From Candidatus Latescibacterota bacterium (GTDB lineage Bacteria > Krumholzibacteriota > Krumholzibacteriia > WVZY01 > JAKEHA01): a stretch of DNA of 64,000 nt. Each line of letters begins with the position of its first letter. Position 1 is the first letter of the stretch. Location: assembly GCA_963707635.1 (NCBI GenBank), contig OY970173.1:1632001-1696000 (forward strand). The letters run 5' to 3'. Below the pieces are notes generated by a model that saw only the letters and a list, made by a program, of their open reading frames with translations, was not told the DNA's origin and did no database searches. The position numbers and the translations under genes were made by a program. Below are positions 52,964 through 59,372 of this stretch, piece by piece.

Positions 52964-52993
52964 TTGACGCCAGGGCGAACGTCGGGGTATGCT
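52964..52993 (+). promoter_or_regulatory. Sigma70-type promoter of the tRNA
   Basis: TTGACG-N18-TATGCT ending 9 nt before the tRNA 5' end. Confidence 0.65.
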
Positions 52994-53034
52994 CCGGCGA
53001 CAGGGCCCATAGCTCAGGGGTTAGAGCAGCCGGC

Positions 53035-53412
53035 TCAACGCAGTGAATCTAAGTTGAGACGAGGGTTGTGTAGCTCGGCGTGGCAGTTGTGACAGACTAG
53101 AATGCACTTGTGCACCTCCGCCAACACTGAATCCAGCTTTCGGTTGGAGAGAGATCGTATGTCCAACTTGAAATGCTTCTTCTTGGCGCCAGGGGTGTGA
53201 TGAAAGGCGAGCGCGGCCAGGTTCTTGTTGTATCCGCAAATCGAGCAGCGACCGCCCGCCTTCTTGACTAGTTCGAGCTTTCTAGCCAGTCCTCGCCGCT
53301 GTTGTGCTGCGTAACTCTGATGGTGGTCGTTCTTGCAGGGAATCGAGCAGAATCGAGATTGCCGGCCTCGCAGACGGGCACCGCACACGATGCAGTTAGA
53401 CTTAATGGTCAT
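53035..53412 (-). CDS. Zinc-finger HNH endonuclease (putative homing endonuclease)
   Basis: CxxC...CxxxC N-terminus, CSICG...LAFHH...CILVCHNCHAELH; lower GC than the flanks; lies inside the intron. Confidence 0.85.
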   Translation of the reverse strand: MTIKSNCIVCGARLRGRQSRFCSIPCKNDHHQSYAAQQRRGLARKLELVKKAGGRCSICGYNKNLAALAFHHTPGAKKKHFKLDIRSLSNRKLDSVLAEVHKCILVCHNCHAELHNPRLNLDSLR

Positions 53413-53639
53413 AACTGTAATCTACGCTCAATATGATTTGATTGCCAAGGGCTGCCTGGCGAGTAATCGCCAGGGCATAGCCTGCCAAACTCGGGGAAGC
53501 CTAAATCGAGTGACACGGTAATCCCGAGCCAAGCTCCGTCAGGAGAAGGTGTAGAGACTAGACGGCAGGCACCCCACGGGGGTGAAGGGATAGTCCAGCC
53601 CACGAACTCGAAAGGGGCAGCGAAAGCTGTCGTGGGACG
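53036..53639 (+). mobile_element. Group I self-splicing intron (Azoarcus-like, IC3) with homing endonuclease
   Basis: U before the 5' splice site and terminal G. Core motifs AAACTCGGGGAAGCC, GGTAATCCCGAGCCAAGC, GAAGGTGTAGAGACTAGACGGCA, GAAGGGATAGTCC. P3 GCCTGCC/GGCAGGC and P7 GACTA/TAGTC. Confidence 0.93.
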
Positions 53640-53765
53640 CATAACCGGTCGCGCCCAGGTTCAAATCCTGGTGGGCCCACCAAGTTCCAGTCGCAGAGAG
53701 TTGAGCGTGCACTTCGGCACGTTGGTTGACCATATCGGAGGGAGCCACGCCGGCAGCGGCACACC

Positions 53766-55489: not shown

Positions 55490-55498
55490 GCTTTCTTG

Positions 55499-57212
55499 AT
55501 GAACAAGTACCGGTGGCTGCGCAACGATACGATCGATGAGGGAGCGGCGAGCGTCCTCGCCGCCGAGCTCGCGATACCGGCGGCCGCCGCGCGTTTCCTG
55601 GTCGGACGATCGATCAGCGATCCGGCCGCCGCGCACGAGTACTTTCAGCCCACCCTCGAGCACACCCACGACCCGTTTCAATTCGAGCGCATGCGCGAGG
55701 CCGTTGCGCTGGTCCAGGCGGCGGAGCGGGACGCGCAGGTCGTGCTCGTGCACGGCGACTACGACGTCGACGGCATCTCCGGCGCGGCGCTCCTGTATCA
55801 CTTTCTTGAGCGGGGCCTTTGCCACCGTGCTGCGGTTCGTGCCCGACCGGCGCCGCGACGGCTACGGCGTGGCGGAGCGCGCGATCGAGTGGGCGATCGA
55901 GCAGAAAGTCGGGCTGTTCATCGCGGTCGACTGCGGCACCTCGGACGCACCGCGTCTGCGCCGGCTCGAAGCGGCCGGCATCCGTGTGATCGTGTGCGAC
56001 CATCACCAGCTCCCGGTGGACGGCGACGTGGCCGGCGTGCTGTTGAACCCGGTGCGGCCGGGAGAAACCTATCCATTCCCGTCGCTGTGCGGAACCGGCG
56101 TCGCGTACAAGCTCATTCAGGCGCTGGCCGCGTCCGGGTTTCGCGGCGCGACCGAACCGGAGTCGCTCCTGGACCTGGTCGCGCTGGCCACGGTCGCCGA
56201 CATGGCGCCGCTGGTCGGCGAGAACCGCTACTTCGTTCGCGCGGGGCTTTCGAATATCAACCGCGCGCCGCGTCCCGGCCTCGAGGCGATCCGGAACCTC
56301 GCGCGACTGTCCGGCAGCGTGATCACCTCGCGGCACCTCTCGTTCGCGTTCGCGCCGCGCTTGAATGCGCCCGGCCGCGTGTCGCGGCCGAAGCCGTCGC
56401 TCGAAATCCTGTGCGCGGGGGTAAAGGAGCGCGCGCTCCAGCTCGCCGCGATCCTCGAGGAAGAGAACGACCGACGCCGCACGCTGACCGAACGCGTACA
56501 GACCGAGGCGATCGCCGCCATCAACGGGATGCCGGACCGCGGCGAGCGCGGCGGATTCGTGCTGGCGAGCGACGCGTGGAACGAAGGCGTGCTCGGCATC
56601 GCGGCGGCGCGGCTGGTCGAGCAGTTCGGCCGGCCCGCCATCCTCATGAGCCCGAGCAACGGGCTGCTCAAGGGCTCGGGGCGCAGCATTCCGGGGGTCA
56701 ATCTCAAGGAACACCTCGACCACTTCCAGCACAGATTGATTCGCTACGGCGGCCACGCGGGCGCGGTGGGTCTCACCATGGAGCCGGCGGAGCTGGATCG
56801 GTTCGCGGTGGATTTTTCCGACCGGCTGCGCGAAGTGCTTCCGCCCGGGAGCGGCGTCACCCTGACGATCGACGCGGAGCTCACCATCGCCGAGTGCACG
56901 CTCGAACTCGTCGACGTGCTCGCGCGGTGCGAACCGTTTGGCGCCGGCAACGCCGAGCCGGTGTGGATGCTGCGCGACGTCCAGATAGCGCGCGACACGT
57001 CGCTGGTGGGAGACGGTCATTTGAAACTGTTCTTCTTCGACGCCACCGGCGCGCGCGCGTCGGCGATCGCGTTCGGGTGGGATCGCCCGCAATCGCCGGA
57101 GGACCTGCACGGCCGCTCCCTGGATCTCGCGGTGACGCTGCGCAAGACCACCTACCTCGGAACCGCGTACCCGGACCTCCGCATCGTGGACCTGCGCGAG
57201 AGCGGGGCCTAG
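55499..57212 (+). CDS. recJ: ssDNA exonuclease RecJ (frameshift near 55803)
   Basis: HGDYDVDG in the first frame; DCG, DHH, ATVAD, PRLNA.GR, KGSGRS, GGH..A.G in the second. Confidence 0.9.
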
Positions 57213-57669: not shown

Positions 57670-58261
57670 ATGAACCCGTTTCTCTCCCCGGACCAGCAGC
57701 GCGACCTCGTGCTCGCGTCGCGTTCGCCCCGCCGCGCGGAGATCATGCGCGGCCTCGGGCTCGAGTTCGAGGTCGAGCCGGCGCCGGAGCACCTCGAAGA
57801 CGACGTGACGCACGACGACCCCTTCCTGCTCCCCGGATTTCTGGCCGCGCGCAAGTGCGAGCACGTCGCCCGCCGGTGGCCCCAGCGCACCGTGATCGCG
57901 GCGGACACAGTCGTGATCGTGGACGGCGACGTCCTCAACAAGCCCGGCGAGCGACGAGCAGGCGCGCGAGTTCCTGGCGCGACTCGCGGGCCGCGCGCAC
58001 GATGTTGTCACCGCGGTCGTGATCCGCGGGGTCGCACGCCGCGTCACCGTGGCCGGCAGCGAGCGGACCCGGGTGACGTTCCGCGCGTTGAGCGCGGAGG
58101 AGATCGCGGCCTACGTGACCACGGGCGAAGGGCGCGACAAGGCGGGGTCGTACGCGGCGCAGGGCCTCGGCGCCGGGTTGATTCGTTCGATCGACGGGTG
58201 CTTTTTCAACGTCGTGGGGCTGCCGGTGTCGCTCCTGCTCGACTTGCTCAAGAGGACCTGA
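57670..58261 (+). CDS. maf: Maf-family nucleotide pyrophosphatase (frameshift near 57946)
   Basis: LASRSPRR, AADTVV, KP, then DKAGSY..QG and NVVGLP in the shifted frame. Confidence 0.88.
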
Positions 58262-58262
58262 A

Positions 58263-59372
58263 ATGCCAATTGAGATCCTGCCCACCGTGCGACTCGTGCG
58301 GGGAAAGCTCCGCATCATCGACCAGACTCTGCTGCCCGCGCGCTACGAGATCCGTGACATCGGCCGCGTCGACGACGTGTGCGAAGCGATCCTCAACCTG
58401 CGCGTTCGCGGCGCTCCCGCGATCGGCGTAGCCGGCGCGTACGGCGTGCTGATTGCGATCGAAGAGTGGTCGCGGGAATGGGTGTTCGATTCGGCGGTTG
58501 GCACTGCCCGCACGAGCGCGCAGGTGCGCCCCGAGCACGCGGGCACCCGCCTCCCGACGCTCGACGAGCTGCGCGACACGCTCGAGCGCGCGGCGGCGCG
58601 GATCGTGATGACGCGCCCGACGGCGGTGAATCTGTCGGCGGCGCTCGAACGCATGCGCCGGGTGTGGCTGCAGGACGGAGAGGTGACGGCGACACTGCTC
58701 GAACTGGTGCGCGAGGCGGATGCCATCCTGGAAGAGGACCTGGCCATGTGCGCGGCGCTCTCCGCGCACGGGTCGGGGCTGATCGCGGACGGCGACGCCG
58801 TGCTGACGCACTGCAACACCGGCGGGCTCGCGACCGGCGGGGTGGGGACGGCGCTGGGAGTCGTCTTTGCGGCCGCCGGCGCGGGCAAGCGCGTCCGTGT
58901 CTACGCGGACGAGACCCGGCCGCTCCTGCAGGGCGCGCGCCTGACCGCGTGGGAGTGCCGGCGCCAGGGCGTTCCCGTCACCGTACTGGTGGAAGGCGCC
59001 GCGGCGTCGCTGCTCGCCGCGCGCGGCGTGGCGTGCGTGGTGGTGGGCGCCGACCGCATCGCCGCCAACGGCGACACCGCCAACAAGGTGGGGACCCACG
59101 CGCTCGCCATCCTGGCGCGCCGCTTCGGCGTCCCGTTCTACGTCGCGGCGCCCTCGACTTCCATCGATGCGTCGCTCCCCGACGGCGCCGGGATTCCGAT
59201 CGAGCAGCGCGCGGGCGATGAAGTCACGTCCTTTGCCGGCACACCGATCACGCCCGAGGGCGTGGATGTCTACAACCCGGCGTTCGACGTGACGCCGGCG
59301 GAATTGGTCGACGCCATCGTGACCGAACACGGCGTGCACCGCCCGCCGTTCCGGTTCGGGATACCGGCGTGA
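58263..59372 (+). CDS. mtnA: Methylthioribose-1-phosphate isomerase
   Basis: IDQT.LP, VRGAPAIG, RPTAVNL, THCNTG.LAT, ETRP.LQGARLT, NPAFDVTP. Confidence 0.95.
   Translation: MPIEILPTVRLVRGKLRIIDQTLLPARYEIRDIGRVDDVCEAILNLRVRGAPAIGVAGAYGVLIAIEEWSREWVFDSAVGTARTSAQVRPEHAGTRLPTLDELRDTLERAAARIVMTRPTAVNLSAALERMRRVWLQDGEVTATLLELVREADAILEEDLAMCAALSAHGSGLIADGDAVLTHCNTGGLATGGVGTALGVVFAAAGAGKRVRVYADETRPLLQGARLTAWECRRQGVPVTVLVEGAAASLLAARGVACVVVGADRIAANGDTANKVGTHALAILARRFGVPFYVAAPSTSIDASLPDGAGIPIEQRAGDEVTSFAGTPITPEGVDVYNPAFDVTPAELVDAIVTEHGVHRPPFRFGIPA

Follow-up and report, generated by a model that had tools for sequence, protein, structure and literature searches.

The main text of Williams 2020 (bioRxiv 10.1101/2020.01.27.920355) sorts bacterial tRNA introns into 21 classes, describes U-1/omega-G introns in anticodon loops, points out that genes may be present in those longer than about 400 bp, and is the source of the IC3 label for the type of intron treated here. 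The tRNA-fMet intron of Synechocystis PCC 6803 (class fMet.2Ug) is inserted at U33/C34 and has the ORF of the endonuclease I-Ssp6803I in P1 (PMC3073962). This PD-(D/E)XK enzyme is the known bacterial tRNA-intron endonuclease (PMC3073962, PMC3984707). The intron in the tRNA-Ile(CAU) gene of Azoarcus sp. BH72 measures 205 nt (PMC13168695); it belongs to IC3 and to class Ile2.5Ug, inserted after U36 (bioRxiv 10.1101/2020.01.27.920355). An antisense homing endonuclease gene with its own promoter has been described for I-DirII, in a nuclear rDNA group I intron of Didymium (PMC3073962, PMC3679873). The T4 enzyme I-TevI is autorepressed through a homing-site-like operator over its own promoter (PMC2988022), and F-CphI, a free-standing nuclease beside an ORF-less intron, takes part in collaborative homing (PMC6083498).

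The locus described here is likely a homing intron of the fMet-U33 lineage in a tRNA-Ile2 gene, and its antisense, predictedly leaderless HNH gene is probably self-repressing and has its ends built into the RNA fold. The intron occupies the same U33/C34 position of a CAU tRNA as the Synechocystis fMet.2Ug intron and also carries its endonuclease ORF in P1, but the host is Ile2 instead of the initiator, the nuclease is of the HNH type, and the ORF is antisense with a promoter of its own. With the Azoarcus BH72 intron it shares the host isoacceptor and a compact core, whereas insertion is after U33, not U36, and Azoarcus-site introns fall outside the clade of this intron (100/100). I-DirII, a His-Cys box enzyme, is likewise encoded in antisense within the intron of a stable RNA, and its gene also has a separate promoter; that system, however, is eukaryotic rDNA transcribed by Pol II, while here we find a bacterial tRNA, a sigma-70-like promoter, a putatively leaderless mRNA and an HNH protein. 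The operator of I-TevI is a parallel to a copy of the anticodon arm over the HNH promoter and start. F-CphI parallels free-standing relatives that adjoin ORF-less Ile2 introns, and the free-standing T4 nuclease SegB lies in a tRNA region, as do relatives near tRNAs. In contrast to these three phage systems with nucleases of other families, the layouts here are chromosomal and centered around one tRNA site.

The main text of Williams 2020 names no Ile2 U33 class, nuclease or orientation, although the Ile2 U33 site may already be in its catalogue. The words "antisense" and "opposite" are absent from the available part of PMC3984707. Our searches of the largely open literature brought up no account of a bacterial tRNA intron with an HNH gene in antisense. 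A recent survey of such introns in Patescibacteria could bear on priority.

The split tRNA-Ile2 gene and its ribozyme

In the window, i.e. the whole 64-kb stretch of DNA that was analysed, the split tRNA gene lies directly after dnaG-rpoD (Table 1). Its joined exons form a 76-nt cloverleaf with CAU and CCA. A first-pass annotation of the sequence had proposed a tRNA-Ile2(CAU) gene that is split at U33/C34 by a 604-nt intron ending in G. All its exon and intron coordinates hold, and the insertion site is upheld both here and by splice mapping in the family. It had also foreseen that automated annotation would likely overlook this AUA-decoding tRNA. Without intron mode, ARAGORN indeed calls no tRNA at 53003-53682; with intron mode it reports the split gene as i(34,604), labelled Met. 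Many relatives are labelled Leu or Ser in this mode. As a result of such misses or mislabels, these genomes seem to lack tRNA-Ile2.

Table 1. Features of the split tRNA-Ile2 gene, its intron and the antisense gene (window positions)
Feature	Positions	Strand	Evidence
tRNA gene promoter, sigma-70-like, just 3' of rpoD	52964..52993	+	9/12 consensus matches
tRNA-Ile2(CAU) 5' exon, 33 nt, last base U33	53003..53035	+	
Group I intron, 604 nt, omega-G at 53639	53036..53639	+	
5' strand of P1-extension helix, opposite the final HNH codons; receptor 5' half 53048-53053	53040..53061	+	pair probabilities, covariation
125-aa zinc-finger HNH endonuclease gene	53035..53412	-	PHROGs; stop codon completed by U33
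8/9 copy of the host U33-G41 anticodon arm over HNH start codon and predicted transcription start	53409..53417	+	
HNH gene promoter, sigma-70-like; -35 53448-53443, -10 53424-53419, 6 nt before ATG	53419..53448	-	
3' strand of P1-extension helix, opposite the HNH promoter (spacer and -35 box); receptor 3' half 53432-53436	53425..53445	+	
Internal guide sequence, P1 with U33.G wobble	53449..53454	+	pair probabilities
P2 with GNRA loop	53455..53474	+	
Catalytic core P3-P8	53481..53596	+	RF00028, covariation
P5, second 11-nt receptor	53500-53505 with 53514-53518	+	
P7, G-binding helix	53554-53560 with 53591-53596	+	
P9 domain, two GAAA hairpins (53607-53616, 53617-53630)	53598..53638	+	
tRNA-Ile2(CAU) 3' exon, 43 nt, C34 to CCA	53640..53682	+	

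The identity of the host tRNA as Ile2, also claimed in the first-pass annotation, could be confirmed within the genome (G000; 3.2 Mb, one contig), which has three CAU tRNA genes in total. At positions that we took to be tRNA identity determinants in a comparison of Ile, Met and fMet, the split tRNA equals the genome's own tRNA-Ile(GAU) in 8 of 9, while the other two CAU genes have Met-type and initiator-type stems. The initiator tRNA-fMet gene is intact and located elsewhere in the genome. The same stem comparison led us to reject the assignment of the split tRNA as elongator Met and of the tilS-adjacent tRNA as Ile2. The split gene is likely the only tRNA-Ile2(CAU) gene of this genome and the reader of AUA. 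Since tilS is present (169 bits) and ATA codons are in use (390 in 476 long ORFs), removal of the intron would be required for AUA decoding.

Some other features of the tRNA genes and the window deserve mention. The variable loop of the split tRNA (53650-53654) reads CGCGC (C46), which is not the usual type; it is common to the congeners G009, G013 and G001 and therefore not a sequence error. At G000:C1:752198-752229 and 749182-749951, a duplicate of the 5' half of the elongator Met tRNA is found 2.3 kb from the intact gene, which lies just upstream of tilS; the duplicated half resembles an integration scar. Downstream in the window, a recJ-like gene (55496-57212) and a maf-like gene (57670-58431), so named from our reading of their translations, each appear to be split over two overlapping frames, possibly by assembly frameshifts.

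As to the ribozyme, an Infernal search with RF00028 matches 53436-53613 above the gathering threshold (52.9 bits against 50, E 1.4e-10), in agreement with the earlier assignment as group I intron. The proposed guide pairs with C29-U33 and the first intron base, including the U33.G wobble, at probabilities of 0.50-0.64 when the whole 680-nt precursor is folded, and P2 as well as both GAAA-capped P9 hairpins are as had been described. In one family member (L063), guide and exon are altered together. Across 58 of 94 distinct cores, 96.8% of 3055 cells are paired, compared to 33–45% in slid-alignment controls; P7 is paired in 100% of the 58 sequences. Changes on both sides occur in 39 of 53 core pairs, a value that was not reached in any of 500 shuffles.

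The first-pass annotation had considered the core to resemble closely the Azoarcus tRNA-Ile intron. This view could not be maintained against Azoarcus-site introns of other bacteria, which were used for the comparison. In a tree of 36 cores, with 11 U36 (Azoarcus-site) Ile2 introns and one Asn intron as contrast set, the Ile2 U33 introns and four tRNA-fMet U33 introns from the same order as this host form one clade (100/100). Over the aligned positions, core identity is 81–83% with the fMet U33 introns and 66–77% with the Azoarcus-site Ile2 introns. The same-order fMet introns also share the guide sequence, and their ORF is a sense PD-(D/E)XK gene (PF11645, E 8.5e-52; one scanned). One U33 ribozyme lineage so appears to have taken up two unrelated nucleases, and the Ile2 introns would represent a second system on this lineage, and a widespread one, with another nuclease, another host tRNA and another route of expression.

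Several individual introns deserve mention. The four fMet U33 introns (L248-L251, from G033, G019, G028 and G024, same order) comprise two with whole ORFs and two of ~350 nt with partly deleted ORFs. A family member on L007 (1070-1943, minus strand) has its ribozyme core interrupted by ~800 extra nt. G000 harbors two further group I introns (C1:245982-246298 and C1:1538472-1539124): an ORF-less one of 242 nt in tRNA-Asn(GUU), and another just downstream of a tRNA-Ile/tRNA-Ala pair, probably in 23S rRNA. The Asn intron of the congener G001 contains a sense HNH relative with 41% identity that is devoid of the N-terminal finger. The core matches 1263 plasmid records, mostly at 60–80%. In the one plasmid record examined, pCTX-M3 (L317:2387-2685), a group I intron that scores 36.8 bits with RF00028, less than the gathering threshold, interrupts a tRNA-Leu(UAA)-like gene without annotation beside the aac(3)-IId region.

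The antisense HNH gene and the P1 extension

Both the orientation and the nuclease family given in the first-pass annotation turned out to be right. The ORF of 125 aa runs from 53412 to 53035 on the minus strand, and its product matches phrog_2255 (E 6.4e-19); all 33 of 33 aligned members match PHROGs HNH families, and the Atlas places the protein in an HNH cluster at 0.97. Pfam and NCBIfam give no HNH name for the 125-aa protein. There are 357 homologues of near-equal length, within a wider family of 21,062 clusters at E 0.001 or better. An N-terminal four-Cys finger is followed by a C-terminal CxxC..HH..CxxCHxxxH module, and all Cys residues as well as H71, E99 and H111 are invariant in 48 of 48 intron-borne relatives. 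The central HNH Asn is not present: K102 aligns to the McrA Asn, and Lys is found in 48/48 intron-borne and 18/18 phage relatives. A structure model (pLDDT 86.8), compared with known folds for the beta-beta-alpha-metal architecture, has HNH domains as top fold matches, which are weak (best Z 3.9, Foldseek E 0.5).

The ORF is intact in 86 of the 94 distinct introns, a count that favours intact genes as the loci were found via the protein. Pairwise dN/dS has a median of 0.12 and a maximum of 0.195 (29 unsaturated pairs, none with this ORF); judged by these ratios, the ORF family is under purifying selection. The GC3 value of the ORF is 0.65, compared to 0.91 for rpoD. U33 completes the stop codon in 62 of the 94 distinct introns, and in 23 the ORF reaches further into the exon.

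Only two promoter-like sites were found in 1 kb, one for the tRNA gene and one for the HNH gene (0.2 in shuffles). In 79 of 92 cases, the distance from a TAnnnT box to the start codon is exactly 6 nt, and a Shine-Dalgarno-like sequence is seen in 4 of 92; the HNH mRNA is predicted to be leaderless. The start region also contains a copy of half of the anticodon arm. In 66 of 90 intron-borne genes this copy matches the arm of the own host type in at least 8 of 9 positions (shuffle maximum 5), and in 2 of 90 that of the other type. The free-standing genes of Gammaproteobacteria have the copy over the -10 box and match their own, different host type in 7 of 14 cases and the other type in 1 of 14; the comparison is one of two clades and not of independent samples. 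L063 is without a matching copy. That the copy appears to track the host tRNA is the best indirect pointer to the target of the nuclease, and 53409-53417 is a candidate autorepression operator. An inverted-repeat operator covering the whole promoter was considered and discarded; its distal half varies like the receptor strand of the RNA (see below).

According to the first-pass annotation, the ORF fills the loop of P1. Its location in P1 is correct, but the loop itself is the terminal loop of a P1-extension helix and not unstructured. In the folded 680-nt precursor, 53040-53061 and 53425-53445 are paired at 0.62-0.93 and extend P1. The internal loop of this helix is an 11-nt GAAA-receptor motif, YCUAAG/UAUGR between two helices, in which the variable bulged base and the invariant C-G and U.A are present. 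The P1 receptor was scored in 88 of the 94 distinct introns. Among 85 anchored members, the pairs flanking the receptor covary, although the register was picked on those pairs, which inflates their counts; the wobble position, unaffected by the choice of register, is G.U in 65 and A.C in 8 of 85 (together 73; at most 65 in shuffles). Natural 11-nt receptors also occur with A.C at the wobble, and the P5 receptor of the 604-nt intron has A.C at this position as well. The bulged base is U in 57, C in 18, A in 11 and G in 2 introns, which fits the tolerance of that position to change described in PMC10243134.

The 604-nt intron has two GAAA loops and two receptors. P1 receptor and extra P9 GAAA loop are both present in 83 of the 94 introns, both missing in 3 and found singly in 8, kin that are not independent. 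L052 is without both the receptor and the extra GAAA loop; the four fMet introns are without the loop, and the two ORF-bearing ones among them also have no receptor motif in the P1 extension. We infer that the P1 receptor would dock the additional GAAA hairpin of P9; this is a candidate for a tertiary contact new to a compact ribozyme. Both strands of the helix are kept in every ORF-less descendant seen, i.e. in G010, three Anaerolineae and two RNA-library contigs, the latter differing from the 604-nt intron by 1–2 letters. Reading by eye, -10 remnants are apparently kept in two ORF-less descendants, which would suggest deletion of the ORF rather than a state before its invasion.

Relatives, alleles and history

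We examined the best 80 of 145 genome loci, the best 80 of 435 metagenome loci and the best 80 of 132 viral loci with HNH homologues. The combination of host tRNA, insertion site, nuclease family and orientation had initially been considered unusual. All four elements hold, as does the tie of HNH homologues to introns; the locus, however, is not one of a kind and belongs to a widespread family, with the HNH gene antisense in a split tRNA in 116 of the 160 cellular loci examined. This arrangement is seen in 113 of 132 loci at an identity of at least 58%, in 2 of 17 at 50–58% and in 1 of 11 below 50%. In 10 of the remaining 19 loci at 58% or above, the 5' exon comes right after the stop. By splice mapping, 113 loci, including the viral locus L165, have a CAU tRNA interrupted at U33/C34; four further loci were mis-cut by the splice scoring, with the same exons visible in three. 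The titled hosts include Chloroflexota (27), several Patescibacteria groups, Armatimonadota, Acidobacteriota and Krumholzibacteriota.

We could also observe a number of other layouts. At 14 loci of Gammaproteobacteria, the gene stands free and points away from an Ile2 gene immediately downstream of it whose U36 intron is ORF-less. L052 and L079 likewise have it free-standing, upstream of an ORF-less intron, and in L040, L071 and L164 it adjoins an intact variant CAU tRNA. It lies in sense inside a U36 Ile2 intron (L069) and inside tRNA-Asn introns (8 loci), and it occurs in phage tRNA arrays, with a tRNA within 900 nt in 62 of the 80 viral loci. Among 8 mapped viral loci, L165 is the sole carrier of the whole element. 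The junction pattern gave 5 matches in viral contigs, none with intron or HNH gene, and the intron core had no match in annotated phages. These layouts form a natural series in which to study how a free-standing nuclease comes to be encoded by an intron, a question of long standing. In a quick tree of the HNH proteins, 46 of 94 forks are open, so the tree does not establish an order of the layouts. In an Armatimonadota Ile2-like gene (L058:1824-1945, minus strand), the anticodon is interrupted by 49 nt that look like an acceptor stem followed by a T-arm rather than a group I intron; a free-standing HNH relative is located directly upstream of it.

Within the genus, the site after rpoD is empty in 9 of 17 genomes, carries an intron with ORF in 2, an ORF-less one in 1 and a broken one in 1, and was not found in 4. 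The 3' exon of the empty gene in G009 is identical to 53640-53682. For the order of L005, 30 loci from 42 genomes include 4 with ORF, 3 ORF-less, 19 empty and 4 unparsed. The intact 13-bp anticodon-arm site C29-G41 has no occurrence in G000. The first-pass suggestion of a probable mobile homing intron gains from the empty, full and ORF-less alleles in one genus, together with the apparent purifying selection in the family.

In the element tree, the 604-nt intron and L022 form a clade (98/97) nested among Chloroflexota elements, and Patescibacteria elements appear at three places. L012 (Doudnabacteria) and L064 (Chloroflexota) are paired at 100/99 and share only the 702-nt element, at 81%. Independent gains in G000 and G003 were rejected on the basis of the element tree. 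In the rpoD tree, a single clade of the four genomes of the genus that bear the intron was not rejected (p-AU 0.057), so that one old gain followed by losses fits as well as ongoing homing. L023 and L024, with identical proteins and different labels, were discounted as a transfer, their flanks being 93% identical.

RNA-library contigs contain unspliced and ORF-less intron pieces, and no joined exons of this tRNA were seen among the contigs listed. Contigs that do join exons were rejected as proof of splicing, for they have the tRNA letters of other organisms and also occur in DNA runs. In G013 (L247/L315), the Ile2 gene retains only 91 nt of intron; the part from the 5' splice site through P6 is missing, and the remnant could therefore not splice. 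Pattern matches in this genome revealed no other intact Ile2-type junction, pointing to either an assembly error or a lost tRNA.

Proposed mechanism and alternatives

We consider it quite probable that the locus is a mobile homing group I intron which self-splices from the pre-tRNA and whose HNH protein cuts intron-free tRNA-Ile2 genes, repair of the cut DNA then copying the intron in. The pre-tRNA would fold with the ORF of ~360 nt looped out by the P1-extension helix, and docking of the extra P9 GAAA hairpin into the 11-nt receptor of the P1 extension would hold P1 on the core. A leaderless HNH mRNA may arise from the gene's own sigma-70 promoter on the opposite strand, and we propose that translation of a stable-RNA precursor is avoided in this way. 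The target of the protein, which might bind as a dimer, may be the pseudo-palindrome of 13 bp that spans C29-G41 in an uninterrupted anticodon arm. As the intron destroys this site, the carrier would be protected. Binding to the half-site copy over its own start could allow the protein to throttle itself. With time, the ORF would be deleted, leaving the helix ends, or the intron would be lost.

It is unlikely, in our opinion, that the intron splices but is immobile here, having entered the genus once and been inherited vertically with an HNH gene that is heading for deletion. The 604-nt intron and the L022 element are indeed sisters, a single carrier clade is compatible with the rpoD tree (p-AU 0.057), and close HNH matches occur in only 2 of 201 genomes of the class. 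ORF-less forms also occur, in G010, the three Anaerolineae genomes and the two RNA-library contigs. However, the locus has kept its ORF, metal ligands, promoter and half-site intact, pieces of the same ORF recur nearly unchanged in DNA runs of four studies, and the family dN/dS of 0.12 and the nine congeners with an empty gene speak for the homing intron. Less probable still is a scenario with reverse splicing as the means of intron movement and an HNH protein selected for some other job, be it nicking elsewhere, help in splicing or tRNA-directed cleavage. Since tRNA-Ile2 genes with ORF-less introns exist, the protein is apparently dispensable for splicing, and close relatives, intron-borne or free-standing, are tied to the Ile2 anticodon arm, with a half-site copy that follows the host. 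Lys in place of the HNH Asn would be in keeping with another job, as would the huge size of the wider family (21,062 clusters) and its frequency in phage tRNA arrays. Moves between CAU tRNAs at the RNA level look possible, given that the guide could pair at the fMet U33 site as well and that the core falls together with those of fMet introns, but an fMet-type sequence was found in 0 of the 113 mapped hosts.

For the half-site alone, an explanation other than an operator is conceivable, if less probable than the operator: it may be the scar of a target-like sequence at the gene's first invasion, or reflect a start-site preference. The copy sits at the edge of the ORF, the other half of what looks like an inverted repeat makes better sense as the receptor strand of the RNA, and L063 and 7 of the 14 free-standing genes have no matching copy. 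Against this, the three bases before the ATG are 89–91% conserved across proteins of ~60% identity or more and fall outside the ten most frequent ones of 39 host genes that look leaderless, and the free-standing relatives have their own host's version over the -10 box instead.

Returning to the mobile intron with a self-repressing nuclease, we tentatively put forward, at a little below even confidence, that both gene ends are fused to the ribozyme through the P1-extension helix, whose receptor would clamp the extra P9 GAAA loop, such that the middle can be deleted and the ends cannot. The same nuclease family, directed at the anticodon arm of tRNA-Ile2 and self-repressed through a copy of this arm, would then be found at every proposed stage in the birth of a mobile intron: free-standing in phage tRNA arrays, at intact variant tRNAs and beside ORF-less introns at two sites, in either orientation inside an intron, and deleted again. 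The 125-aa protein is a candidate small site-specific nuclease with a predictable target. Three relatives (P0121, P0122 and P0127) consist of two tandem finger-HNH modules, the second of which alone keeps the full recognition-region motif; for the question of a dimer, they may provide only a hint.
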